Source of the DNA: a virus
Lineage: Duplodnaviria > Heunggongvirae > Uroviricota > Caudoviricetes
Strand: one strand, 5' to 3'
Length of the DNA: 64,000 nucleotides
IMG/VR virus record: IMGVR_UViG_3300044568_003085
The notes under the pieces: model-generated
The model's input: only the letters and a program-made list of their open reading frames with translations
The model's database searches: none
What the model was told of the DNA's origin: nothing
Part shown: in pieces, positions 1,066-57,181 of the stretch
Layout of the letters: each line of letters starts with the position of its first letter
How positions within the stretch are numbered: position 1 is the stretch's first letter
Made by a program: the position numbers and the translations under genes

Positions 1066-4000
1066 ATGGCAAAATGTGAATTATCAACTGATAAATATAT
1101 TTCAGTTGTAAAAAATTTAATTAAACTTAACCCTAGTGAATATAGAAACTTTGATAAAACTGCAGAGTTTATTTTAAAAAGTGGTCTTTCTAATTATGAA
1201 AAATCACTTTCTTTATATTCTATTGCTGAGATATATATTGGTTTACATGGTTTAGATAAACGTTTTTATGAGTTAGGTAAAGCAGATAGGATTGCTGATG
1301 CAAGAGTTTTATTAGATGACACTGATCAGTTTATATCTTCAGTATCTGAATTGTATTCTGTTAAAAAAGCTCCAACTGCAAAAATTGAAACTATTGAAAG
1401 AATGATTAATGATTTGTCAAAAAAGACAGTTGTTACTCGTAAAGATTTAACAAGTTCAAACGGTATATTAAATGCTATTAAAAATTATTTTAATACAATT
1501 GAATTTGAAGATGAAACAATAAGAGAAGGATACATTGATAATGTTAATCATCAATTAAAATCTATGTTACGTGAGTTAAACACATCTGACTCACATAAAG
1601 ATTTGTTATTAAAAGCTGTTGATACAACTATAAGTGCTTTAAAAAAGACTTCACAATTTATTTCATTACGTGACATTGCATCACTTGCAGAATTAAATAA
1701 TGAACTGGTTACTCTTGTCAATGGTCAAATGATTGAAGCAATACCTAGACCTGATGGATTATACGTATATGATCAAATGGGTAATGAACAAAAAATTAAT
1801 GAAAAAGACATTGTTGCAAGAAAAGATGCACGTAATGATGATTATTCTAATAGCAATACTGGTAAGCAAGAATTTTTTGAAGATACAATATTATCTAATT
1901 TTAAAATCAAACCTCTTGAAAATGAGGTATTTAAAAAAGAACAGATAATAACAAAACTTAAAAAAATGGGTGATGCTGTTACTGCTGGTATAAAGATTCA
2001 TGCAGTTAAGATTAGTACAGTAGGTGATGATAGATTAAAAAGAATACATGATGTAGCAGTTGATCCAAAATATAAAGGATTAGCAAATAGAACTTATGAA
2101 ACATTTGAAAATGATACACAAGTTGAATATTTAAAATCTACATCTAAAGGTACAGTTATTACCGTAGCAAGACCAAAACAATCTGAAAATCAATATGTAC
2201 TTGTAGGTGAGATAATTGGTTCTGGTGAAAAGTTTTACTTGTATCCATTAGACAATTATGTATTTTTAAATAGTGATAACACAACACAAAAAATAGATTT
2301 TTCAAATCCAGTTCATCTTGAAATGGTTAAGGAACATTCTATTAAAAGAACAGCTGAAGGAGTTACTGATTTGACTCAAAATGATTTAGAAACATTAAAA
2401 AATACATACAGTTTGCATAACATGTTTAAAGCAAACATGACTGATTTTTTATCAACTAAATTTAATGATGCAATATCTTCTGTTGATGTATCAGAACAAT
2501 TCTTTTTTCAATACAGTATCAATTCTCAAAAAGTTGGAAAAACAACTATACAAAATTTAGCAGATTTAATTGATACAGATAAATCATTATCAAGAAAATT
2601 AACTATAGTAACATTAGATACTTTTGGTAAAACTATAAAAGAAGAAGAAAGAAATCTTATTTTTATGTTTACTAAGTTTAATGATTATAAAGATGCTTCT
2701 GGAAATTATAAACCAAAAGATCAACAAAATAAATTTCAATTAGTAAATTTATTAAACGGTAATGAAAGAATAAAAATAACAAATGCTGAAGGTGAAGAAG
2801 TAGATACTGTAACTCAACAAGCATATTTAGATAATCATTTTGATTCATCTATAAAAATGAATGATACTTACATTAAAGAAAAAATATTTAATGGCAAGTA
2901 TTATGAAAATCAAAATCATATTATTATTAGATTTAATAATAATAAAACATATGGTTACAAAATTGTTAAACCAATTTATGCATTAGAACAAACACAAGGT
3001 TTTGCTACATTTTTAAATACATTGTCTGATGTTTTACAAGCACCAGATAAATCTAGTCAATTAAGAAGTTTCAATTCAAGAGTATATAAATTTGCAGGTT
3101 TTACAGCTTCCAGTGGAAAAGTAGAACTATATGCAAACTTTGCAAATGATGCTAAAGGTAATTTACAAGTAGAAATTAGACCACCTTCAAACGCAAAAGC
3201 AGATAGTAAGTATGGATTTATTTTACAATCACAACCAAACAAAGGTGCATTTAATTTTTCACTTGCTGAAAATGAAAAAGATTTAATCAAAGACAATGCA
3301 AGAACTAAAGATTTAATATCTAAAGTTGTTGGTGAAAATATTATATTTTCTAATTTAGATTTAAATAAATTAAAAGATGTAACTAGATTTTACTCTTTAC
3401 TTAATAAACTTTCAAAAGATAGTAATCCTTCTGAGAATGTACTTAACTTAATTGAAGCAATAGAAACTCAACAAAATAATTTTTCTAAAATACTAAATGA
3501 AAAAGTAATTGAAAAGTTATTAAAAGTTGGTGAATTCTTTCCTGGATTTTTAGATAACTTTAATAAAGATTATCCAAATCCAAAACACTTAATACTTGAT
3601 ATAAAAGCAAATGGCAAAGAAGTACCACGTGTTATTTTTGCAGACAAAAATGAATCTCAAGCAAAAAAAGATTTTATTGCAAGTGCAAGTAGTTTAGAAT
3701 TACATGACATACCACAAAAGAAATTGGTTATTACTTCTAAATCTCCTGTTAGTACAGTTACAAAAATTGCTAATGTTCCATTAACTGAAGTTACAGAGCA
3801 CCCTATAGAAAATATACCAGTATCTAAACCTACTTTGTTTGAACAAATGTTTGGTAATGAAGTTACTGAAGAAACTACTACTAAAGAAGAAATAGATTTG
3901 TCAGATGATATTCCTGAAATAGATTTATTTTCAATATCTAATAGTGAAGTTCAAACAGAAACAGAAGCGCAAAGAGAAAATTCAATTCAATGGTTACAAA

Positions 4001-7000
4001 ATAGTTTACCACAATTTGACATTAGTCAAGAAGAATTATCAACAGTAGTTGACTTATCTAAAATTGATGGCAATGTACTTGGTATGTTTAAAGACAGAGT
4101 AATTCATTTAAATAATGAAATACTTTCTAAAGGAGTTGTGTATCATGAATCATTTCATGGTGTATTTCGTTACCTAATGACACCAGAGCAACGATCTAAA
4201 TTAATTGAACAGGTAACTTCAAATGTAAAAAATAAGAAGTTATTTACACCTTCTGCATTAAAAGCATTTGCAAGTGAAAGAAACTATATTTATGATTATG
4301 AAAAAATGATGAATTTACAAGCAGAAGAAATTCTTGCTGATGGTTTTCAAAATTACATGATTAAAAATACTAAACCTAAAGGTTTACTTGAACAACTATT
4401 TTCATTACTAAAAAAATTAATTGACATGTTTATTAAACGTGGCGATGTAATTGATGGTACATATAAAGATATAAAAAGAGGTTACTATTCAACAGCGCAA
4501 ATTCAATCAGGTATGTATGATGGACAAGCTGCTTATGCATTAATTCCTGGATTAAAAACCATTGTTAAAAATAATAAAAATGCATCTGGTGTAAGTCAAA
4601 AACAATCATCATTACAAAAAGCTGATCAAAATCAATTAGTATATATGGTATCAAAATATATTATTGAAGATACTTCAGGTAAAACTTTTGATGAAAAATT
4701 TGAAACATCAAGACAATTGATTTTAAACAATGTATATAATTTAGACAGAATTATTGAAAAAAATCCTGAGTATACAAGAGAAGAAGTTGTTAAAGCATAT
4801 GGTGATTTGTATTCAAACTATAGATTTATGCTTGGTGCAAGAGCATTAGGTGAAACTATTAATGATGTAAATAATTCTGGTAATGATAAATTTAACAAAA
4901 GAACATTACCAAATAAAATTAAACAATATAAAGATAAGTCACTTGATAATGACTTAGGTCAAGTATCACTTGATGTACTTAAAAAACTTGTTAAAGAAAA
5001 AACAAGAGAGTTATATTCAATGTTGGATGGTGTAGGAAATGCGATAAGCAAAGATGTATTAGCAAAAGAATTATCTGGAGAAAATGAATTTAAATCTCAA
5101 CTAGACGAAGATGCAGAAGATAATGAAGAATTATCTGATGATGTAAATACTGAGGAAGAATTTGGTCAACATAATAGATTGGATTCTGCACCAAGACAAA
5201 TAAGAAGATTTCTTGCAATCATTGATTATGACAAGAAAGACTCTAAAACTGGTATGATTATTCCTCGTGTTATAGATGGCGAATCTCTTTATGGTACTTT
5301 ATTAAAAATTACTTCTGATATTTCTGTTGATAATATAATAAATCACATTAGAGTAATAGCAAATACATATAAAGAAGATGGTAATGTAGAAGCAGCTGGT
5401 GATTTACAAGCAGTATATGATAAACTTGCTTCGTATACATCTATGGATGAAAATGGTAATCCAGCAACTAACAAACAATTATATAATATGTTTAAAGATG
5501 TGCTACATGGTACTGAAACAAATTATATGATTATGTATGCTACTTTAAAAACAGGTATTTTTGAAGAAGAAGGAAATAATATTTCTAGTTTTACCATGTC
5601 AGATAGAGTAATGCAAGCTGATATAGTAAATAGAAGACGTAACTTAGTGTCTTCTATGATTACAACTCATGCAAAAAAACGTACTGATCCAGAATATATT
5701 CAATCAGTAAAAAATCTTATTGCAATTTCTGATAAAATTATTAATGAAAAAATATTAATGGGTAGTAGTAAAGAAGCAAATACTACTTTAGAAACTTATA
5801 CATTTGATTTGTACAATGCATTTAATGCAGTTGGTATTAGTTTACCAAAGTCATTAATTAGAATGTCTTTACTTGCTATTGATAAAATTGATAATAACAA
5901 CAATGCATTAACTCAAGTAAATAAAAATACACTTGAACATTATGATACAAATAAATCTTTAATATTAGAAAGTGCTTATTTACAAAAAGATTACTTTAGA
6001 GATATTAAAGCAATTTACAAAAATGTAATAGATGAATCAATAACATCTAATGCGTTTGGAAAAATGCTTGATGATAAAAATGATAATTTAAATAGATTTT
6101 TTAGTGTAACAAATAAATTTGCAAAATACATTATTAAATATGATGCAACAGATTTACCAAGTGTATTTAGAAATGCTGCAGGTAAACCTGTATATCGATA
6201 TACTAAGTATACACCATTACATACTATTTCACAATCTATAAGACAAGAAGGATTACTAGACACATTAAAAAAAGATCCATACTACAATGATTTCTTAGAA
6301 GATTTTTATTCTGACAATCCATTGTTTAATGACTTACTAAAAGGTGATAATACTAAAAAATCAAAAGTAGCTAAATTATTAATGGACAATATGAATATAT
6401 CATTATTTGGTGGTATTGCTCAGTTTAATAATAAAACTTATAAAGATGGTAAAACTTTTGGTAAATTAGATGATCAATCACTTCATATTATGAGTATCTT
6501 ATCTTTCTTACAAAGAAGTAATATATCATCATATGAAACTGTAATAGATGAAGATGGTAACGTAACAACTCCAAAAACTACTATACAAACTTATGCACGT
6601 TCATTTGACACATTAGAAGCATCACAAACAAACTTTTTAATTACAGCATTATATCAACAATATGCTGATACTAAAGGTGTTACAAAAAATAAAAATAATC
6701 ATCTTAAAATTGTTGATGATCTTGAAGCAAAAGTAAAACAAGAGTTTAACAGAATTAAAAAAGAATGGAATAGAAGAAGTGAAAATAAAACTAATTTTGA
6801 TTCTGGTACTTCTAACTTACTTGTAAATAAATATAATGGTGTATTAGACAGTGTTGATAAAACAAAAGCAAATGTTGAACAAGAAAATTTAAGAGCATAT
6901 AATTTTAATGTGTTTCCGTATTTTTTCAGTGCACCAGAAAATGAATTATTTACAAACAATTTAACTCAATTAGCAAAAGATAATACAGTTCAATTTGAAG

Positions 7001-26087: not shown

Positions 26088-28115
26088 ATGATGAATCCAG
26101 TAATATATTATGATTTATCTGATGCAAATACACCAATTAGCACATTTATTTCTATATGGGATACCAGATTAGTATCTTCTGGTTCTTTCGAGGAAAATAA
26201 AATTTGTTTACCTTTAATATCTACTGGAATTTATGATTTTATAGTTGATTGGGGTGATGGTACTAATAACACAATTGTCACATGGGATGACGTTAATGTT
26301 ATTCATAGTTATGCAGTAGAAGGTGTTTATAAAATATTAATTACTGGTACAATTAATGGGTGGCAATTTGCTAATACAGGTGATAGATTAAAGTTGCTTA
26401 ATATATTACAATGGGGACCATTACAATTAGGTAGGGAAGGTGATTATTTTTATGGGTGTGAAAATTTAGTATTATCAAATGTTTCTGATGTATTAAACTT
26501 ATCAGAAACTACTTCTTTATATAGAGCATTTTATCAATGTATAAGTATTACAACAATTAACAACATTAATAAATGGAATACATCTACAATAACAACTTTA
26601 AACAGAACATTTGATAGATGTATTAATTTTAATGATAATATTGGTAATTGGGATACAAGTAATGTTACCATTATGGAAAATGTATTTACGTCTGCATCAA
26701 AATTTAATAATGGTGACAATGTTTCAATAGGAGAATGGAATACTTCTAAAGTTACTACATTTAAAAATATGTTTGGTAGTGATTCTTTTACAGGATACAT
26801 GATATTTAATCAATACATAGGTGATTGGGATACATCACTATGTAATGATATGTCATTTATGTTTTTTAGAAATCCAAAATTTAATCAAGATATTGGTACT
26901 AAAAAAGTTACTAAAAATGGAGTACCTTATCTTGCGTGGGATACAAAAAATGTGACAACCATGTTGTCAATGTTTTCGTCACAACCAACAGCTGGAATTA
27001 TGCCAATTGGTGAATTTAACAATGGAGGTTCAAATAGTATTGGTAATTGGAATACAATTTCATTAACAACTACTCGATTTATGTTTCATTCTCAATGCAA
27101 GTTTGATCAAAATATTGGAACAAAAGAAGTTACTTTTTCTGGATTTCCAACTTACAATGCATGGGATACACAAAATATAATTGATATGGCTGCAATGTTT
27201 TATGGTCATATTAGCTCAGATATTACAGGTATATTTAATAATAAAGGTAGCGGAAAAATAGCAAATTGGAATACTTCAAAAGTTACTACAATGTCTTCAA
27301 TGTTTTCTAGACAAAAATTATTTAATCAACCTATAGGTACTTCACAAGTTACAGTTGGAGCATCTACTTATTTAGCATGGGATACCATATTAGTAAACAG
27401 TATGAGTTTTATGTTTTTTAATAATTTAGATGCTATATTTAATAATGGAAATAGTTCTTCTATAGGTTTATGGGACACATCAAAAGTTACTACAATGGTG
27501 CAAATGTTTACAGGTGCTCCATTTTTTGATCAAAATATAGGACCACGTACAGTTACTGGATTACGAATAACTCCATATACATCATGGGATGTTGGTTTAG
27601 TAACAGATTTTAGTTTTATGTTTTATGCTTTTTCTTTTCCAAAAAACATGTCAATTTTTAATAATGGTGGAGGAACACCTCAAGGTGGATCTAATTCTAT
27701 TCAAAATTGGAATACTGTTTCTGCATTAAATATGAGATATATGTTTTATAATAACTTATCATTTAATAGACCAATTTCATGGAATACTTCTACAGTAACA
27801 AACATGACATCAATGTTTAGAAATGCAATTGGATTTAATAGACATTTGGGTACATTAAATGTTTCTGCTGTTACAACTTTTGGAAGTAGTACAGATTTAA
27901 CAGATCAATTTATGGCATTTAAAACTTTTAATAATTATTCATATGATAATTATGATAAAACGTTAATTGAATGGGCAACTAGACCAGTTTTACCAAATAA
28001 AATAATTTCTTTTGGCACAGCAAAATATTCTGCAGCAGCAATTGCAGCAAGATCAATACTAACATCTTCACCTAATAATTGGACAATTATTGACGGTGGA
28101 CAAATAATTTTATAA
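26088..28115 (+). CDS. DUF285 / BspA-like 26-residue-repeat protein (675 aa), a putative receptor-binding or host-adhesion protein
   Basis: At least 10 tandem copies of the ~26-aa repeat with consensus I.NW[DN]TS.VT.M..MF....FNQ.I (for example IGNWDTSNVTIMENVF, IGEWNTSKVTTFKNMF, IGLWDTSKVTTMVQMF). Confidence 0.75.
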   Translation: MMNPVIYYDLSDANTPISTFISIWDTRLVSSGSFEENKICLPLISTGIYDFIVDWGDGTNNTIVTWDDVNVIHSYAVEGVYKILITGTINGWQFANTGDRLKLLNILQWGPLQLGREGDYFYGCENLVLSNVSDVLNLSETTSLYRAFYQCISITTINNINKWNTSTITTLNRTFDRCINFNDNIGNWDTSNVTIMENVFTSASKFNNGDNVSIGEWNTSKVTTFKNMFGSDSFTGYMIFNQYIGDWDTSLCNDMSFMFFRNPKFNQDIGTKKVTKNGVPYLAWDTKNVTTMLSMFSSQPTAGIMPIGEFNNGGSNSIGNWNTISLTTTRFMFHSQCKFDQNIGTKEVTFSGFPTYNAWDTQNIIDMAAMFYGHISSDITGIFNNKGSGKIANWNTSKVTTMSSMFSRQKLFNQPIGTSQVTVGASTYLAWDTILVNSMSFMFFNNLDAIFNNGNSSSIGLWDTSKVTTMVQMFTGAPFFDQNIGPRTVTGLRITPYTSWDVGLVTDFSFMFYAFSFPKNMSIFNNGGGTPQGGSNSIQNWNTVSALNMRYMFYNNLSFNRPISWNTSTVTNMTSMFRNAIGFNRHLGTLNVSAVTTFGSSTDLTDQFMAFKTFNNYSYDNYDKTLIEWATRPVLPNKIISFGTAKYSAAAIAARSILTSSPNNWTIIDGGQIIL

Positions 28116-49563: not shown

Positions 49564-50361
49564 TCATTTCTTTTTAAATTGTTCAAACCATTTATTTAAT
49601 ATTTTAGTTCCAAATTCTGTAGATGTCAAAGCAGAATAGTCTAACTGTCCGCCATTACAAAATGCTCTTTTCATATCTTCTTCGCTATATCCTTGTTGTT
49701 GCTGTTTAATTATTTCTTTACAAACAGCAATCATTAACATTCCATTTGGAGTATTAGTTTCAAATAATTTTGTATCTGCTCTTGTTTCATAACCAAAACT
49801 TGGAGCTAACTTCTCATAAGTATTATGAAATAAAATAGCTAATTGAACTTCTTCAAGTGTTTCTTGTTTACCAACGTGAGTAATTGTAATACCTCTTTCA
49901 CGTTCTTCTTGTGGAATGATTATGTTATAAAGTATAATATGACCATTTTCAGTAGAATGTATATAATTATCCACATCAACATTCTCACAACTTGGATTCT
50001 TAACAAACCATTCTAAAAACTCATCATCAATAGCTTGTACATTATCTAATGATTGGTCTGTTGTTAGGATTATTTTTTTGTTCCTGTCTAAAGTTTGATA
50101 GGTTTTTTGAGTAAAACTTCCTTTACCATCTTTGGATTCTATGTGAAAACATAATTCTCCATCAATAAATATGTTTTTACCTACACCAAATGGAGGGTAA
50201 AAACTATAATCCCCTTCTTTAATTTCTTCATCAGAAGTGATGTAGATGTTTCTACCCAATCTCCATTGTAAAGGTTCTTTTGATAAACCCATTGGAGATA
50301 GAAAATCGTATTCGTGTAACCTGCTCGGTTTATCTGTTGGTAATACGTGTATGTTTTTCAT
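49564..50361 (-). CDS. hypothetical protein (265 aa)
   Basis: ORF. Confidence 0.6.
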   Translation of the reverse strand: MKNIHVLPTDKPSRLHEYDFLSPMGLSKEPLQWRLGRNIYITSDEEIKEGDYSFYPPFGVGKNIFIDGELCFHIESKDGKGSFTQKTYQTLDRNKKIILTTDQSLDNVQAIDDEFLEWFVKNPSCENVDVDNYIHSTENGHIILYNIIIPQEERERGITITHVGKQETLEEVQLAILFHNTYEKLAPSFGYETRADTKLFETNTPNGMLMIAVCKEIIKQQQQGYSEEDMKRAFCNGGQLDYSALTSTEFGTKILNKWFEQFKKK

Positions 50362-51383: not shown

Positions 51384-51412
51384 TTTATTTGATTTTATAA
51401 ATTATTAAAACT

Positions 51413-51480
51413 TGATCAGGAATTGAACCTGATATCTGTCCTTATTGTCCCGCGCTCTGATAGATCTAACGTTCATAAAA
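51413..51480 (-). other. tRNA-like element with a T-arm-like hairpin (ATCAGG-TTCAATT-CCTGAT) on the - strand; no complete cloverleaf could be built
   Basis: The - strand reads ...GGACAGATATCAGGTTCAATTCCTGATCAAGTTTT. The 7-nt loop TTCAATT matches the T54-Psi-C-R-A pattern. An imperfect direct repeat GGACA(A)GAT(G/A)TCAG(A/G)G occurs about 55 nt upstream on the same strand. The element lies in a 186-bp gap. Confidence 0.25.
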
Positions 51481-51569
51481 TATAATTTTATTACTAAGTT
51501 GTTACTACTCTGACATCTTGTCCTAAAGTTGTTTTACCTCTTAAACCACAAGATTTAATAATTTTACTG

Positions 51570-52864: not shown

Positions 52865-53213
52865 TGCTTTTTACTATTTCTATTAATTTTAATAAACATT
52901 CAAGTTCTGCTTCTTCGTAGGTTTTAAAATTACTTCCATAAGATTTACCAAAATTGTCGTTTTCAGTTTGTATAAAACCTCCCCAAAAAACACCTAAATC
53001 TTTTTGTTTTTTTAAAGGTAAAGAAAATTCAATATTTGAATACTTCTCTCTAAACCATCTAAATGCTTGTTGGTAAAGTGGTGCTGAAAGATATAAAGAA
53101 TGGTCATTTTGATTTAGTAATCCATCATCTCCATAACTTTTTAAACAAAATTCATCAAATCCTAATTCTTTTAAAGCTAATGCTTGTTCATAAGGTATAA
53201 ATTCTTTAGTCAT
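52857..53213 (-). CDS. hypothetical protein (118 aa)
   Basis: ORF. Confidence 0.5.
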   Translation of the reverse strand: MTKEFIPYEQALALKELGFDEFCLKSYGDDGLLNQNDHSLYLSAPLYQQAFRWFREKYSNIEFSLPLKKQKDLGVFWGGFIQTENDNFGKSYGSNFKTYEEAELECLLKLIEIVKSNE

Positions 53214-53580
53214 GGTATTCTATAAAATTTAAACCTGTGAATATTCTTGTACAATGCATAAATAATTGTAAATATATTTCAGTACCATCAGATGAATCTA
53301 TACAATAAACTCCTTGATACTCTTCGCCACTTTTAGTTTTACCCTCTTCAAGATTACCTTTTCTGTATAAAGTAATACTAGAACTAGGAAAATAAATAAT
53401 AATATTGGTTGTATTTCCAGAATTAAATACAATAGTTGCATTACCATCTTGCCATTCGCTTAGTTTGCCATTTTTTTCAGTAATAAATGAGTGATACTGT
53501 TTAACAAAAGTCTTTCTATCTTGTGAGAAAGATGTTAATGATATTATCATCACTAACATTAATAATAATAGTTTTTTCAT
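53206..53580 (-). CDS. secreted/periplasmic protein with an N-terminal signal peptide (124 aa)
   Basis: MKKLLLLMLVMIISLTSFSQ is a typical signal peptide. It is the first gene downstream of the ORF-free region. Confidence 0.55.
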   Translation of the reverse strand: MKKLLLLMLVMIISLTSFSQDRKTFVKQYHSFITEKNGKLSEWQDGNATIVFNSGNTTNIIIYFPSSSITLYRKGNLEEGKTKSGEEYQGVYCIDSSDGTEIYLQLFMHCTRIFTGLNFIEYHD

Positions 53581-53599
53581 TTTAATAAATTTATGATTA

Positions 53600-54057
53600 A
53601 TATTTTAGCACCCTCTTTCTTATAGTCTGTTCTTATGTACTATTGTTTCTGCAAATCAATTACGATTGTTAGATATAAGAGTAGGGTCACGTAGTTATTT
53701 GACGTGTTGAACTTATCAGTGTTGATCCTTTCACATAACTACTTGCTGAGAACTCATTTGTGTTGTGCAGTCCGCATCTTTATCTGCAGTTCTGATAGCT
53801 TATTTCATCTACCCACCTGTATTCCTTTCTCAAGGGAACAACACATCTACCATTACTGATAGTATCTTTAGAGGTGCTTGGCATCTCAAGGTATTCAATG
53901 TTTAACCTTTAGCTTCACACAGTTTATCAGATCTGGTGCTTTACACAGCTTAGCTATTGTTTGAGAGTTTATATCTTGCAACTCACAAGTGTTCCCTAAC
54001 ATCAGAGACCAATCTTACAAGTTTAAAGTGGATGTAAGACCACTATTAATTTTAAAG
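53600..54057. ncRNA. candidate structured non-coding RNA; ORF-free, GC-richer island of unknown class and strand
   Basis: About 460 bp with no ORF of 60 aa or more on any strand. Base composition is visibly GC-richer than the flanking genes. Long-range complementary segments exist, for example AGGGAACAACAC (53833-53844) with GTGTTCCCT (53989-53997), and a local hairpin CTTACA...TGTAAG (54014-54038). Confidence 0.3.
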
Positions 54058-54231
54058 AATGGTTTTTTCTATGTTCTTCAATTCATACTTTTGAATCGAT
54101 TGTAACACAAAAGTTTTCTTTCTTTCTTTGTCACATAATCTTGCTGCTTCTGCTTCTGCTTCTTCTAAAGTTTCCCATCTTTTTGATGGAGAACTCATAT
54201 TTTCAACATGAACCATAAAAAACTTATCCAT
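54058..54231 (-). CDS. small acidic ORF, 57 aa (MDKFFMVHVENMSSPSKRWETLEEAEAEAARLCDKERKK...), below the ORF-track cutoff
   Basis: ATG at 54231 overlaps the stop of the SPFH gene (ATGA-type junction). Confidence 0.3.
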
Positions 54232-54233
54232 AA

Positions 54234-55085
54234 TTATCTATTTAATAATATACCAGTTGTTCCAAATACATTATGTGAACCATATTCAGATGTACCATTA
54301 GTAGCTCTTATTCTAGCAGTTTCTGCTTTGTATAACTCTAACAATTTAGGTTGAGATAATATTTCTTTTGTTTTAGCATCATATTGTGCTGCTTCATAAT
54401 TACCTTTTGCTAATGCTACTTTCTTTAATGCGGTTTGTTCAGCTTGTTTAGTTTGAGATATAATAGTTGCTGTTTCCTGTAATACTGCAATTTTTCTCTC
54501 AATAGCTGCTTTATATGATTTAGGCAATTGCATTTTAAGTATAGCAATATTATTTAATGTAAATCCTTCCTTCTCTAAAGAAGCTGTTAAAGATCTTGTT
54601 ACATTACCTTCATAAATATTTCTATGTTGTAATAAACTATCTGATGCAAATGATACTGCATTATCTAATAATTCTTTTCTAACAATAGTTCTTACTCTTG
54701 AATTAATTAAATCTTCCATATCCACTCTATACTTAATAAATAACTCAGCTGCTCTTGCTCTTTGCAACTGTAAGTTAATAGATACATCTAATCCAAATGT
54801 GGCTCCATCCGCTGATGTTACATCAATATGTTCATCTGTTGGTGATTCTTCATTTGAATCTGCTGTCCATACCTTATGTTGTACTGATGTTGGATACATA
54901 AATACATCCTGTGTTGGTGGGAAGTAGAAAATAAATCCACTTGCCATTTCAATGTTGGGGACACCTTTATTGGTTCCAATCTGATCTACTACTAATGCTA
55001 CTTCTGCTGAATCTGCAATTTTACATGATCCTGCTAATCCTAGTACAACTAAAATTATTACTGCTGCTGTTAAAATTTTGTTCAT
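54234..55085 (-). CDS. SPFH / band-7 (stomatin-prohibitin-HflC-like) membrane-anchored protein
   Basis: N-terminal signal anchor (ILTAAVIILVVLGLAGS) followed by an SPFH-like core (EVALVVDQ..., AAELFIKYRVDMEDLINSRVRTIVRKEL, C-terminal coiled coil). 283 aa. Confidence 0.7.
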   Translation of the reverse strand: MNKILTAAVIILVVLGLAGSCKIADSAEVALVVDQIGTNKGVPNIEMASGFIFYFPPTQDVFMYPTSVQHKVWTADSNEESPTDEHIDVTSADGATFGLDVSINLQLQRARAAELFIKYRVDMEDLINSRVRTIVRKELLDNAVSFASDSLLQHRNIYEGNVTRSLTASLEKEGFTLNNIAILKMQLPKSYKAAIERKIAVLQETATIISQTKQAEQTALKKVALAKGNYEAAQYDAKTKEILSQPKLLELYKAETARIRATNGTSEYGSHNVFGTTGILLNR

Positions 55086-55088
55086 AAT

Positions 55089-55325
55089 CTAATTTTTGTT
55101 TAATTTGTTTTTAAAATAATTTATTGCACATTCTAATATTATCACACTATAATAGGATGATGAAAAAATTGTCAAAAGTAGTATTAATAAACCCAATACA
55201 AAGGTAAGTGTTGATGGTTGACTCATTAAATGCAAAGATACCATAACCATTCCTATTGCAGAAACAGTTATGATAAATATGCAAATTAACAATAACCAAA
55301 TGTTATTTTTAATTTTTGTAAACAT
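55089..55325 (-). CDS. small two-TM membrane protein (78 aa), possibly an NfeD-like partner of the SPFH protein
   Basis: Two hydrophobic helices. It sits immediately upstream of the SPFH gene on the same strand. Confidence 0.45.
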   Translation of the reverse strand: MFTKIKNNIWLLLICIFIITVSAIGMVMVSLHLMSQPSTLTFVLGLLILLLTIFSSSYYSVIILECAINYFKNKLNKN

Positions 55326-57181
55326 TAGAAAATCATTTTTTCTTTAATTAATTTATCTACTTTTTTTGATACATATGAAATCATATCATTAGGTAAATTT
55401 TCTATGTTTGTCATTTTAATAAAATAATCAAACATTTCTTCTGAAGGTACTTCTTCGTCAATTGCAATTTGAATCACTTGGAATCCTAATGCTTGTGCCA
55501 TAGTAACCTTTTTTCTAGTGTCATTGATAGACGCTTGACCATTATAACCATATGCAGCTGGTTGACCATCTGAAATAACAAATAACAATCCTGGATCAGC
55601 AGTTCTGTTTCTAACACGTTTGGCAACTGCATAAATTGCATCACCATCTCTGTTATTACTTCTTGCAGTAGCAGAACCTAACGCATAAGGATCCATGTTT
55701 GCACCTGGTTCACGATAAATTCTAATAGTACAATCACGTGTATTCTTTTCATCTGCAGTATGACCATAAATATACAGTTGAACATCAGGTTGCTTTTTGA
55801 ATACTTCATTGATAAAAATAGCAGCTTGACGTGCTTTTTTCATTCTATCTCCACAACCCATAGAACCAGATTCATCAATCAACACTGTTATGTTGATTTT
55901 ATTTGTGGTTACTTGACCAAATCTTTCGTAAATAGTTGGTACTCTTTGAATTGCTTCAGCAAGTTTATTAGTATCTAGTCTACCTGAACGCATAGATTTC
56001 ATAGAAAACTGATAATCTTTTGATTTACGTGAAAATAACTTTGCAAGAACTTGAGCTTTTGTACTATTGATTTTTGTCAAATCTTTTAAATACTTATCTT
56101 TATCAGAATCAGATTTCTTAAATACAACATTTCCATCAATAGATTCACCTTCTTTACTAAAATCATGACCTGGAGGCAAAGCTCTTTTTTCTTCCATATC
56201 ATCAGTAAAGTCATCAAAATCATCAGAAAACTCATCTGAATCATCACCATCAGGAGCATTCATCATTTTTTTCATCATCTCCTGTGCAAGATCATTCATT
56301 TCAGATTTAGTTGGCATTGGTGCTTTTCCACCTTTACCTTCTTCATCTCCTTCTTCATCTCCATCACCTTCACCATCTCCTTTTTCTTCTTCTTTTTTGT
56401 CTTCTGCAATTATGAACTTATTAATTACACCAGAAAGATATTGAGCTTGTTTATCACAATCCATTGATGTAAGTGGAAATCCATGTTTTTTCATATAACT
56501 TTCAATTTGAGAAAGAGGTTTTGCAAACTCATCTACTTCTTCTTCAGTTACATGTGCAGGGTATCTAAGAAATTTAGTAATAGTTTCAGTAAGTCTTTTA
56601 CCAGCATGTTCTTCTTCACCCAATGGTTCATATGTTTTATCATATTTATATTGTTTAAATTTTTGAACAAACTTGGAATAACCTGGAAATCTATCTGCTA
56701 ATCTTTTGTCAATTCTTTCAGTATTTAATATTGTAAACATTAAATCTCTGATAGTTGTTGTTGTTTGTGAACTACGAGCATTCATGGTACGCATGTACTC
56801 ACTTTTTGTCTGCAAGGTTGCAAGAGCTGCATTTTGAATTGCAGCACCGTAAAACGCATCTAAAAGCTCTACATCATGATTCATATAAGTACCATCTTCT
56901 GCACGTAACATACTCAAAGGAACTGGAACAGTTGTTTTATCATTTACTGCTCTAAGTTTATTTGAATGATCATATTTCACATCTTTTGGTACACCAATAA
57001 CTCTAAACATAGAACCAATCATTTTAGCTGCAGATCTTAAGTTTTGATTATCTCTTACAAAATAAGAAGAGTAACCTGTTCTACCAGAATCCCAGTCAAA
57101 TAACTTTTTACTTGGATCATAAAAAGAATAAGCATCTTCTTCTTTTCTTTTCCACCAGTCTTTTTTAAATTTTATACTCAT
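55325..57181 (-). CDS. von Willebrand factor A (vWA) domain protein with a central acidic low-complexity region; CobT-like
   Basis: MIDAS motif VLIDESGSMG (DxSxS) in the C-terminal domain. Acidic tract EEKGDGEGDGDEEGDEEG. Length 618 aa and domain order match phage/bacterial CobT-type proteins paired with MoxR/CobS ATPases. Confidence 0.8.
   Translation of the reverse strand: MSIKFKKDWWKRKEEDAYSFYDPSKKLFDWDSGRTGYSSYFVRDNQNLRSAAKMIGSMFRVIGVPKDVKYDHSNKLRAVNDKTTVPVPLSMLRAEDGTYMNHDVELLDAFYGAAIQNAALATLQTKSEYMRTMNARSSQTTTTIRDLMFTILNTERIDKRLADRFPGYSKFVQKFKQYKYDKTYEPLGEEEHAGKRLTETITKFLRYPAHVTEEEVDEFAKPLSQIESYMKKHGFPLTSMDCDKQAQYLSGVINKFIIAEDKKEEEKGDGEGDGDEEGDEEGKGGKAPMPTKSEMNDLAQEMMKKMMNAPDGDDSDEFSDDFDDFTDDMEEKRALPPGHDFSKEGESIDGNVVFKKSDSDKDKYLKDLTKINSTKAQVLAKLFSRKSKDYQFSMKSMRSGRLDTNKLAEAIQRVPTIYERFGQVTTNKINITVLIDESGSMGCGDRMKKARQAAIFINEVFKKQPDVQLYIYGHTADEKNTRDCTIRIYREPGANMDPYALGSATARSNNRDGDAIYAVAKRVRNRTADPGLLFVISDGQPAAYGYNGQASINDTRKKVTMAQALGFQVIQIAIDEEVPSEEMFDYFIKMTNIENLPNDMISYVSKKVDKLIKEKMIF

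Follow-up and report, generated by a model that had tools for sequence, protein, structure and literature searches.

An ORF-poor gap in a phage operon probably encodes a structured RNA of a family absent from Rfam

The window, a 64,000-nt stretch of DNA from a virus of the Caudoviricetes (IMG/VR record IMGVR_UViG_3300044568_003085), carries a leftward operon with an ORF-poor gap at 53581-54051, which extends from the stop codon of a 59-aa ORF to the ATG of a 124-aa ORF. The longest ORF in this gap, on either strand, is of 51 aa, and the claim of the original prediction that none reaches 60 aa therefore holds. The remainder of the operon had been described as densely coding throughout; its junctions do overlap or span a few bases, with the exception of a 186-nt gap at 51384-51569. 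The region had also been singled out as a GC-rich island. Its GC content (0.36-0.395) exceeds that of the immediate flanks (0.24-0.30), but the rise is modest, and coding stretches close by are equally GC-rich (0.385 at 54800-54999 and 0.38 at 55500-55699), so GC content by itself would not mark the region out.

The 124-aa ORF (53206-53580) lies on the same strand as the gap and begins with a signal peptide, which bears out the predicted position directly upstream of a secreted-protein gene. The 59-aa gene is present in one homologous locus (L015) and missing from two others (L016 and L039), where the RNA described below directly follows an SPFH gene; the slot of the 124-aa gene is filled in other loci by tmRNA, tRNA or unrelated genes. 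The tRNA-like element placed 2 kb away is represented by a T-arm-like hairpin at 51412-51440, but neither ARAGORN nor Rfam calls it, and ARAGORN found no tRNA or tmRNA gene within the whole window. Scanning for promoter and terminator consensus sequences returned counts equal to the shuffled expectation, with no convincing candidate on the minus strand, and neither a terminator nor a sequestering helix was found at the 3' end of the RNA.

The features of the locus are given below, with the RNA read in the direction of the operon (minus strand). The limits of conservation used to place its ends were taken from alignments A1 and A2 and from an alignment of the upstream region (up5).

54052..54231, minus strand: upstream flanking gene, 59 aa, from the ORF list; outside the RNA
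53603..54044, minus strand: whole RNA (5' accessory module, linker and core), about 440 nt, with ends inferred from conservation limits
53959..54044, minus strand: 5' accessory module, with the stem TCTTACA (54033-54039)/TGTAAGA (54013-54019) plus another hairpin, GAGTT..AACTC; in a subset of members only
53911..53958, minus strand: variable linker from module to core; missing in L016 and L128
53885..53910, minus strand: helix Ha, AAAGGT/ACCTT, closing the near-invariant loop YTAAACATTGA (53895-53904)
53871..53887, minus strand: optional helix Hb, here in a short form GAG..CTC (alignments A2 and A3)
53847..53862, minus strand: helix Hc, 6-bp stem CTATCA/TGGTAG with the GNRA tetraloop GTAA (53853-53856)
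53839..53845, minus strand: 5' strand of helix Hd, TGTGTTG, with its partner at 53759-53765; three-way junction around He and Hf
53822..53838, minus strand: helix He, TTCC/GGAA, closing the invariant 9-nt loop CTTGAGAAA (53826-53834)
53766..53821, minus strand: Hf, a variable region with one or two hairpins within the Hd junction, differing in every lineage
53759..53765, minus strand: 3' strand of helix Hd, CAACACA
53746..53758, minus strand: conserved single-stranded block AATGAGTTCTCAG, a candidate pseudoknot strand
53688..53745, minus strand: helix Hg, CA-A-GTAGTTA (53736-53745)/TAACTAC-G-TG (53688-53697); the 38 nt between the strands (53698-53735) are variable
53610..53687, minus strand: 3' domain, Hh ACCCT (53683-53687)/AGGGT (53610-53614) around Hi and a variable interior
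53675..53679 and 53619..53623, minus strand: helix Hi, CTTAT/ATAAG, inside Hh
53605..53609, minus strand: 3' tail GCTAA, invariant and the last conserved sequence (alignments A2 and A4)
53206..53580, minus strand: gene flanking the RNA downstream, 124 aa, with a signal peptide at the N terminus, from the ORF list; outside the RNA

The core of the window copy, 310 nt at about 53910-53601 on the minus strand, contains five near-invariant sequence blocks, and these were found in at least 136 loci representing at least 105 distinct core sequences. The loci come from viral or metagenome contigs of freshwater, marine and sludge origin and from the cultured crAss-like Cellulophaga phage phi14:2; the core measures 205-310 nt across the family and the total 240-520 nt. 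The ordered blocks are the TAAACATTGA loop, the GNRA hairpin with the CCTTGAGAAAGG hairpin, AATGAGTTCTCAGCAAGT, ACGTGACCCTACTC and AGAGGGTGCTAA, and the window copy carries all five, matching the consensus. Blocks B1 (TAAACATTGA), B2 (the CCTTGAGAAAGG context) and B5 (AGAGGGTGCTAA) lay outside the first search patterns. The cores of B3 and B4 served as search patterns and the second scan was only partly relaxed, so part of the invariance of these two blocks is ascertainment. The pattern CCTTGAGAAAG N{60,90} AGCAAGT lacked specificity: coding false positives stood among the matches listed, which were filtered before use. The blocks of the window copy share 97-100% identity with those of L016/L039, and the adjacent SPFH protein just 81-85%.

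The family appears to be phage-specific, bacterial genomes and prophages being essentially without it: a search of 185,579 species genomes returned one match, on a 5.7-kb MAG contig. The Cellulophaga phages phi4:1 and phi17:2 retain the 3' domain (Hh/Hi) only. An Infernal scan against Rfam, proposed with the original prediction, gave no family match even at permissive E-values. Rfam 15 matched nothing in the window at gathering scores, nothing in 53300-54400 at E<=10 and nothing in five homologous loci at E<=5, and at gathering scores no family fell on the element either in the window or in 16 loci; group I and II introns, GOLLD, ROOL, RNase P and tmRNA are among the families without a match to it. 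The tmRNA and tRNA matches of Rfam and ARAGORN in other loci adjoin the element and do not lie on it. Judged by these covariance-model searches, the RNA family is absent from the Rfam catalogue, and literature searches found no description of it. The view that the class could not be assigned by eye was well founded.

The secondary structure was examined by comparison of homologues. Alignment A4, of 72 distinct sequences, was anchored on sequence only and blind to structure, and pairs were counted directly, so that the alignment was not fitted to the structure. Of the cells at helix positions, 94.8% are paired, against 36.6-44.1% in slid controls, and 214 cells were changed on both sides, against 34-53. 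Compensatory change was seen at 23 pairs, and none of 500 shuffles reached any of the observed measures. Helices Hc, Hd, He and Hg have strong comparative backing from compensatory changes; RNAalifold recovers Hc, Hd and Hg on its own, and the minimum free energy (MFE) fold of the window copy includes all four. The folding energy of the single sequence gave no signal relative to shuffles (z = 0.03 and 0.25 on the two strands), so the case for structure stands on the comparative data and not on thermodynamics. The prediction of a large structured RNA is therefore substantiated, since the region belongs to a conserved family in which four helices or more show compensatory base-pair changes, and the relatives hold the same RNA at this place rather than a coding gene.

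The comparison also shows which strand is transcribed. The cells of Hc, Hd and He taken together include 59 G.U and 7 A.C combinations, and those of Hc alone include 39 G.U and no A.C, which fixes the strand.

The individual helices differ in how they vary. The 11-12-nt loop of Ha is found in nearly all members though it was not used as a search pattern, and its stem occurs in other versions (AGTGG/CCACT, ACTCGT/ACGAGT and AACC/GGTT) with a mean length of 4.98 bp, against 4.52+-0.09 bp with permuted partners. In other members Hb is a long variable hairpin closed by CTTTGTAAAT / ATTTACATAAAG. The Bacteroidota -7 promoter has the consensus TAnnTTTG, and the match to it of TACCTTTG (Ha/Hb) was judged a coincidence because no such word occurs in members without Hb and the segment covaries as RNA. 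All six pairs of Hc show compensatory double changes, with 97.7% of cells paired, as do six of the seven pairs of Hd (compensatory changes; 99.2% of cells paired), which exists in three wholly distinct versions (TGTGTTG/CAACACA, ACGTGAG/CTCACGT and CATGCAG/CTGCATG). Three of the four He pairs are compensatory (TTGC/GCAA, CAAC/GTTG, CTAC/GTAG, CGTC/GATG and CACC/GGTG) around an unchanged loop, and Hf, which MFE folding of the window copy resolves into two hairpins, is lineage-specific in length and sequence. Five of nine pairs are compensatory in Hg (e.g. GTGATTA/TAATCAC and GTGGTTA/CAACCAC). In Hi 77% of cells are paired and some of the changes are compensatory, and Hh is nearly invariant, with three compensatory and four wobble changes against six disruptions in 105 distinct sequences.

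A candidate pseudoknot is formed by TTCTCAG (53746-53752), which is complementary to the He loop TTGAGAA. It is paired in 99% of cells, with no compensatory change, three G-C to G.U changes and four mismatches, and UGAGA is kept in the alternative 5' domain of insertion-bearing members. As the candidate pseudoknot and Hh are both nearly invariant, covariation cannot confirm either. The nucleotides GAUA, AAUGAGUUCUCAGCAA, ACGUGA, AAAG and GCUAA at the junctions are strongly conserved. The comparison of sequences thus shows a predicted core fold that runs from Ha through the optional Hb, Hc, the Hd/He/Hf junction, a single strand and Hg to Hh/Hi and ends at GCUAA.

L016/L039, L122, L105, L128 and L110 carry the accessory module immediately 5' of the core, with no linker in between in L016 and L128, and L057/L134 and L074 have a piece related to the linker 5' of the core. 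The stem of the module has four covarying versions, and the local hairpin predicted at 54014-54038 is accordingly real, being that of TCTTACA with TGTAAGA. The predicted long-range pairing of 53833-53844 with 53989-53997 fared differently: the complementarity exists but forms no part of the conserved fold, and it was rejected as a conserved helix because 53833-53844 is taken up by the locally closed and strongly covarying Hd and He, with which it competes. Two other candidates were set aside, namely an RNAalifold helix GAGU/ACUC, whose variants in L113, L136, L072 and L088 are uncompensated, and hammerhead-like CUGAUG..GAAC words in the 5' module, which have no stem II and no Rfam match.

The surroundings of the element were compared between loci. 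Its flanks are unrelated, consisting of the end of a protein gene, a tRNA, a tmRNA or intergenic DNA, and its 5' boundary abuts the stop codons of different genes. Of 100 distinct loci, whose shorter flank has a median length of about 800 nt, 36 carry a tRNA or tmRNA gene within 2 kb, in every case on the strand of the RNA, and 111 of the 112 tRNA and tmRNA genes within 5 kb are co-oriented with the RNA. At least ten loci have a tmRNA after the RNA, on its downstream side without exception and at a distance of about 50-130 nt in several; tRNA or tmRNA genes begin about 10-130 nt downstream of GCUAA in several loci, and in L040 the RNA is inside an array of 17 tRNAs. The permuted-tmRNA calls made by ARAGORN in three loci (L087, L119 and L130) overlap only the last 30 nt or so of the element. 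In the window, Rfam and ARAGORN place no tRNA or tmRNA gene next to the RNA.

Clustering of the ORFs within 5 kb of 100 loci found no conserved protein partner. The recurrent neighbours are the MKNIHxLPTDKP protein, the g118 family, HNH endonucleases and SPFH, and none has an RNA-related Pfam or PHROG annotation. Comparison of the conserved loops and strands with ten adjacent phage tmRNAs yielded scattered 6-8-mers only and no consistent site. HNH homing-endonuclease ORFs occupy two separate sites within the element, one in L039/L104 and one in L015, and homing-endonuclease cassettes, with an HNH enzyme of 161 aa, are inserted at the AATGAGTTCTCAG block in L104, L080, L042 and L083. The homing-endonuclease ORF of some relatives is read as an insertion and not as an ancestral gene.

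The homologue in phi14:2 is a full member of the family, at about positions 2911-3360 of its record (KC821624), in a 685-nt gap between real genes; ARAGORN places a tmRNA in the next gap, at about 4031-4500. In the GenBank record three tiny ORFs are annotated over the RNA on the opposite strand. An RNA-seq study of phi14:2 described two "long non-coding RNAs", at the g004-g005 and g005-g006 junctions (Drobysheva et al., bioRxiv 10.1101/2020.03.07.982082). Both lie at the left end and are transcribed rightward, early, at levels above most genes and persistently, and the study gives no sequence family, structure or function for them (bioRxiv 10.1101/2020.03.07.982082). Rightward transcription of this region agrees with the orientation of the element, and the coordinates indicate that one of the two RNAs, presumably that of the g004-g005 junction, is most likely the family member.

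These observations make it very probable that the region is the gene of a real, uncatalogued structured RNA. A decayed protein gene or a site acting as DNA (an origin, or a packaging or recombination site), with no RNA involved, would agree with an ORF-free gap in a dense operon and with the ordinary folding energy. However, the compensatory changes keep base pairs and not codons, the variable parts differ by non-multiples of three and related loci hold no ancestral ORF, and the 59 to 7 asymmetry of G.U over A.C implies selection on one RNA strand, which is not expected of a DNA site; this reading is next to negligible. Nor is there much to recommend a cis-acting leader (riboswitch, attenuator or thermosensor) for the secreted-protein gene at 53206-53580, one of the options originally listed. 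The RNA does lie directly upstream of that gene on the same strand, but the downstream neighbour changes from locus to locus (tmRNA, tRNA, HNH endonuclease or unrelated proteins), a gene of the 124-aa family comes next in few loci only, the RNA sits mid-array among the tRNAs of L040, and its 3' end has no terminator or sequestering helix, all of which makes a leader very remote. An ORF-less group I intron, likewise listed, or another self-splicing or mobile intron with homing-endonuclease ORFs as passengers, could account for the HNH ORFs found in L039/L104 and L015, the GNRA tetraloop, the multi-helix junction and the possible pseudoknot. The unrelated flanks mean that there are no conserved exons and no host gene, and flanks that differ between loci argue against both an intron and a leader; Rfam 15 has no group I or II match at E<=10 in the window or the insertion-bearing L104, or at E<=5 in five homologues, and the neighbouring tRNA and tmRNA genes, often 10-130 nt away, are complete and intact. 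The intron is for these reasons highly improbable.

The third option listed, an ornate large RNA, is the nearest description of the element, but membership of GOLLD or ROOL is not detectable. A very divergent or reduced member of either class would occupy the same niche (phage-encoded, near tRNA islands and abundant in infection; PMC12286853), and the occurrence in lake and marine metagenomes is as for GOLLD. Against this stand a core of 205-310 nt, compared with roughly 580 nt in ROOL and over 800 nt in GOLLD, and the lack of any match at gathering scores (the window and 16 loci) or at E<=5-10 with permissive filters, which leave such membership a slim chance. Somewhat better placed, though still unlikely, is a ribozyme or processing scaffold that cleaves itself or guides cleavage and so defines its own ends, or those of tRNA or tmRNA, in a polycistronic precursor; such an RNA would not work by binding a factor in trans. 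Conserved junction nucleotides, a GNRA tetraloop and a candidate pseudoknot are typical of catalytic or ligand-binding cores, and conservation ends sharply at GCUAA, with tRNA or tmRNA starting about 10-130 nt downstream in several loci; yet the element matches no known family of self-cleaving ribozymes in Rfam, and the window and many other loci have no adjacent tRNA or tmRNA. The best explanation overall, to which we assign a probability of roughly 0.7, is that the region holds the gene of a stable, structured non-coding RNA from a large phage-specific family beyond Rfam, with a more tentative role in trans in the translation module.

On this explanation by a stable trans-acting RNA, the RNA would be made within a polycistronic transcript and, where tRNA or tmRNA genes flank it, might be released by host tRNA-processing nucleases. 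This route cannot apply as such in the window, which has no adjacent tRNA or tmRNA; there the 59-aa and 124-aa genes would flank it on the operon transcript from which it derives. Pairing of the invariant He loop with the invariant UUCUCAG would lock a compact pseudoknotted core. The RNA could then act in trans in a phage module that takes over translation and ribosome rescue, by binding of host or phage factors or by self-assembly, as for GOLLD and ROOL, rather than through pairing with an adjacent gene. Given that neither a conserved protein partner nor complementarity to tmRNA was found, it is the gene neighbourhood that suggests action in the translation module, and this part of the proposal is tentative, with a likelihood somewhat short of even. 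More speculative, and on balance doubtful, is the idea that the family represents a new functional class of RNA, either a ribozyme or an RNA or RNP particle, that might act on host translation or rescue together with phage tmRNA and tRNAs, with the homing endonucleases targeting the conserved single strand AAUGAGUUCUCAGCAAGU as its active site.

To our knowledge, large and intricately folded bacterial or phage RNAs without an assigned function are rare, the known ones being GOLLD, ROOL, OLE and raiA; well-studied large ornate RNAs have given unexpected biology, such as RNA nanocages. The present family offers practical assets in its compact core of 205-310 nt and its abundance in aquatic viromes, and a cultured, genetically accessible system in Cellulophaga baltica with the crAss-like phage phi14:2, for which RNA-seq exists (GEO GSE133609). 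Its recurrent place just upstream of phage tmRNA suggests the hypothesis of a link to trans-translation or to tRNA and tmRNA maturation, and the targeting of the most conserved strand by homing endonucleases likewise yields a concrete hypothesis. Annotation can also be corrected, since the RNA is now hidden under three spurious mini-ORFs in phi14:2 and left blank in metagenomic phage genomes.

Several known systems resemble the family in part. The stable RNAs C and D of T4 (species 1 and 2), of about 120-140 nt, come from the T4 tRNA gene cluster and are co-transcribed and co-processed with the phage tRNAs, with function unassigned; the analogy with the present family is one of context only. 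Group I introns share with it the size range, the GNRA tetraloop, the multi-way junction, the possible pseudoknot and the tolerance of peripheral homing-endonuclease ORFs, but its order of helices has no recognisable P7/G-binding or P3-P8 arrangement. GOLLD and ROOL are phage-encoded, often lie beside tRNA islands and are abundant during infection, and their function is not established (PMC12286853). Both fold into several helices with pseudoknots and conserved loops, and their niche is common to the present family, a context that is insufficient for membership. The present RNA differs from both in lacking covariance-model similarity, in being much smaller and in its preferential position just upstream of tmRNA genes, and the family would be a third, unrelated class of RNA in the phage tRNA-island niche.

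The original prediction rested on an ORF-free island of raised GC content inside a densely coding leftward operon. The island was borne out: 471 bases separate the stop of a 59-aa ORF from the ATG of a 124-aa ORF, and the longest ORF between them, on either strand, is 51 aa. The rise in GC (0.36-0.395, against 0.24-0.30 in the immediate flanks) is weak, as several nearby coding stretches have the same values, which leaves the absence of ORFs as the solid part of the observation. The single-sequence folding energy of the region was no better than that of shuffled sequences (z 0.03 and 0.25 for the two strands). The Rfam scan proposed as a check found no family: Rfam 15 gave no matches in the whole window at gathering scores and no relevant match in the gap region at E ≤ 10.

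Features of the locus in the window
54052-54231, minus: 59-aa ORF, whose stop borders the gap
54044-53959, minus: accessory module of the RNA, 86 nt, upstream of the core
53910-53601, minus: core of the RNA, 310 nt
53206-53580, minus: 124-aa ORF with a signal peptide, whose ATG borders the gap
51412-51440, minus: tRNA-like T-arm ATCAGGTTCAATTCCTGAT in a 186-nt gap (51384-51569), without a recognisable acceptor stem

ARAGORN found no tRNA or tmRNA in the window; such partners are absent, and there is only the T-arm-like hairpin, itself called by neither ARAGORN nor Rfam (E ≤ 10). If this hairpin derives from a tRNA or tmRNA gene, as is possible, the operon would be a decayed tRNA island. Elsewhere in the window (26573-27825), degenerate direct repeats of ~47 nt with irregular spacing (families D1, D2 and D4 of a repeat scan) all share one frame-like register, TGGGATACA…GTTACTA…ATGTTT, and look like a protein-coding repeat domain.

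No phage genome close to the window was found in GenBank. The adjacent SPFH/Band-7 gene (54234-55085), used as a query, retrieved 39 IMG/VR loci; few were syntenic with the window, and the element was recognisable in L016, L039, L015 and L030/L031 (L-numbers denote homologous loci in viral or metagenome contigs). Parts of it are 97-100% identical between the window and these relatives, against 81-85% for the adjacent protein, which gave the first indication that selection acts on the nucleotide sequence. Scans for exact patterns taken from two of the conserved blocks yielded 12 further loci in viral contigs, 91 in JGI/ENA/TARA metagenome contigs (lakes, sea water, activated sludge), and a single match, on a 5.7-kb MAG contig, among 185,579 bacterial and archaeal species genomes. 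A subsequent scan with another block as its anchor brought in at least 36 more distinct members, and the family totals at least 136 loci and at least 105 distinct core sequences. These counts indicate a large RNA family of aquatic origin, found almost exclusively in phage DNA. Its carriers are diverse aquatic phages; the host of the one cultured member is Cellulophaga (Bacteroidota).

The SPFH/Band-7 lipoprotein is 74-95% identical across the 39 viral contigs (L001-L039), most of which have none of the other neighbourhood genes in common with the window, as though this gene travelled between phage genomes by itself. In L016 and L039, the SPFH gene is preceded by a 60-aa membrane-protein ORF, and immediately upstream of that ORF (5760-5792) Rfam detects a DUF805b RNA motif (RF02914) that scores above the gathering threshold; the equivalent site in the window, upstream of the 78-aa ORF at 55089-55325, yielded no match.

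All members of the RNA family share five ordered blocks, on the strand equivalent to the minus strand of the window, spaced by variable hairpins.

Conserved blocks of the RNA, 5' to 3'
B1: AGGYTAAACATTGA
B2: GATAC, a GNRA-loop hairpin, then TGTGTTG-TTCC-CTTGAGAAA-GGAA
B3: CAACACAAATGAGTTCTCAGCAAGTAGTTA
B4: TAACTACGTGACCCTACTCTTAT
B5: ATAAGAAAGAGGGTGCTAA

The shortest members are ~205-260 nt and most are 260-450 nt. The accessory module also occurs in L016/L039, L122, L105, L128 and L110; because four covarying versions of its main stem exist and no linker separates it from the core in L016 and L128, it was counted as a peripheral domain of the same RNA. In another subfamily, to which Cellulophaga phage phi14:2 belongs, an extra domain of 100-130 nt is inserted into the GNRA hairpin, within its 5' strand.

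So that the alignment would not be fitted to structure, fixed-length blocks were cut at sequence anchors, N-joined and aligned with MAFFT (72 distinct sequences, 158 columns). Standard pairs filled 94.8% of helix cells, against 36.6-44.1% when helix partners were slid by 1-3 columns, and two-sided changes were present in 214 cells, against 34-53 in the slid controls. Compensatory change was seen at 23 pairs, and none of 500 column shuffles reached any observed measure. The signal came from four of the core helices (named Ha to Hi, 5' to 3').

Helices carrying the covariation signal
Hc: 6-bp stem with a GUAA tetraloop; compensatory change at 6/6 pairs
Hd: 7 bp, in three entirely different versions; 6/7 pairs
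He: 4 bp, closing the invariant loop CUUGAGAAA; 3/4 pairs
Hg: 5/9 pairs

RNAalifold, run on natural full-length sequences, independently recovered Hc, Hd and Hg, and all four helices are present in the MFE fold of the window copy. Ha is more weakly supported than these four, and Hh (ACCCU/AGGGU) is nearly invariant: the enlarged set contains three compensatory changes, four wobble changes and six disruptions. The He loop (UUGAGAA) can form seven pairs with the conserved single strand UUCUCAG; because both partners are invariant but for three changes from G-C to G.U and some mismatches, this pairing is kept as a hypothetical pseudoknot. Hc, Hd and He together contain 59 G.U cells and 7 A.C cells, where the opposite strand would give the reverse; the element's strand is also that of the operon and of the neighbouring tRNA genes. 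As read from sequence comparison, these observations demonstrate a conserved, strand-specific, multi-helix RNA fold outside every catalogued family.

In some relatives, the most conserved single strand is itself interrupted by an insertion of 230-830 nt (…AATGAGTTCTCA / insertion / GTTCTCAGCAAGT…).

Insertions in relatives
L104 ~3180-3880; also L080, L083, L042/L046: insertion inside the element
L039 6932-7888; also L089: 5' domain replaced
L015 2105-2416: 103-aa HNH endonuclease ORF inserted between B4 and B5

The insertion starts with a covarying hairpin (NNNNTT-ACCC…GGGT-GGANNNN) and in L104 and L039 contains a 161-aa HNH/NUMOD4-type homing endonuclease, the ORF of which is decayed in L080 and L042. 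Its end, comprising a GUAA hairpin, a helix AATGG..CCATT and a hairpin whose loop TGTATGAGATAT keeps UGAGA, resembles a second, divergent copy of the 5' domain of the RNA itself. Group I and group II models did not match the insertion, which represents an intron-like element or else an endonuclease cassette bringing along an alternative 5' domain. The endonuclease in L015 is different from the 161-aa protein, and this second site implies that insertion of endonuclease genes into the RNA, whether tolerated or attracted, is not limited to a single position.

Genomic context was surveyed at 100 distinct loci, many on short contigs (median shorter flank ~800 nt). ARAGORN placed a tRNA or tmRNA within 2 kb of the element in 36 of them, the nearest being on the element's strand in every case, and 111 of the 112 such genes within 5 kb were co-oriented with it. 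In L040 the element lies inside a 17-tRNA array. A tmRNA is downstream in at least 10 loci and upstream in none, in several starting ~50-130 nt past the element or touching its 3' end; in L016 and L039 the tmRNA gene (Rfam RF00023) begins 76 nt after it, and in L031 tRNA-Ile, a permuted tmRNA and tRNA-Met lie slightly beyond it. These observations show that the element lies within tRNA/tmRNA islands or descends from them. Flanking sequences are otherwise unrelated from locus to locus, which excludes both an intron interrupting a conserved host gene and a leader dedicated to a single gene. Recurrent neighbour proteins had no RNA-related annotation, and the conserved loops had no consistent complementarity to adjacent tmRNAs.

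In three loci (L087 6480-6834, L130 9733-10087, L119 323-711), ARAGORN called permuted (two-piece) tmRNAs that overlap the final ~30 nt of the element at their 5' end, reflecting either genuine abutment or a mis-set tmRNA start. A 265-308-aa protein beginning MKNIH(V/I)LPTDKP, with no Pfam match, was found at 24 of the 100 loci (window 49564-50361, minus), co-oriented with the RNA and ~1.4 kb downstream of it; the N-terminus MKNIHVLP also opens a group of HNH endonucleases (10 loci).

The sole match to the core in a BLAST search of GenBank phages was phi14:2, a crAss-like podovirus of a marine flavobacterium. Its complete family member (KC821624, ~2911-3360) occupies a 685-nt gap between real genes, overlain by gp007-gp009, three mini-ORFs of 34-39 aa on the opposite strand (2923-3248). 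The next gap holds an ARAGORN tmRNA (3848-4317, tag GSSVQKLAMVA), overlain by gp011-gp014 (3729-4336); both sets of ORFs are probably annotation artefacts. Two long intergenic regions at the left end of phi14:2, the g004-g005 and g005-g006 junctions, are reported to be transcribed rightward and more strongly than most genes, with RNAs from both present from the earliest time point and, unlike other early transcripts, not declining later (Drobysheva et al., bioRxiv 10.1101/2020.03.07.982082). No other long gaps exist there and the direction of transcription agrees, from which we infer that one of these RNAs belongs to this family and the other is the tmRNA.

The unrelated Cellulophaga myoviruses phi4:1 (KC821632, ~2520-2600) and phi17:2 keep the 3' hairpin domain alone (CATGACCCTACTCTTAT…ATAAGAAAGAGGGCGCTAA) at the equivalent place, in a 143-nt intergenic gap. 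The gene before it has a 3' end similar to that of phi14:2 gp006, and an OmpA-domain gene is likewise found upstream at both loci. These shared features suggest that a module may have been exchanged between unrelated Cellulophaga phages.

No description of the family was found in the searchable literature and Rfam 15 does not contain it; its only prior trace, we infer, is the unnamed 'long non-coding RNA' of phi14:2. The window locus is one more member, the novelty being the family itself, and present evidence offers no new principle. The RNA would be co-transcribed with its neighbours, released by tRNA/tmRNA processing enzymes where such genes flank it, and accumulate as a stable RNA, its compact core locked by the He-loop pseudoknot and a GNRA-receptor contact. 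It may act in trans within a phage translation-takeover module; the main rival is a catalytic role, in self-processing or guided processing. The tmRNA links are suggestive, and the family is an orphan RNA class that is well supported, widespread and amenable to experiment. In functional terms its nearest analogues are GOLLD and ROOL, large ornate phage RNAs that occupy the same niche and likewise have no known function; tested against their covariance models, the RNA gave no match to either. GOLLD and ROOL form RNA-only cages (PMC12286853). In kind, the present family is another of the phage tRNA-island structured RNAs.
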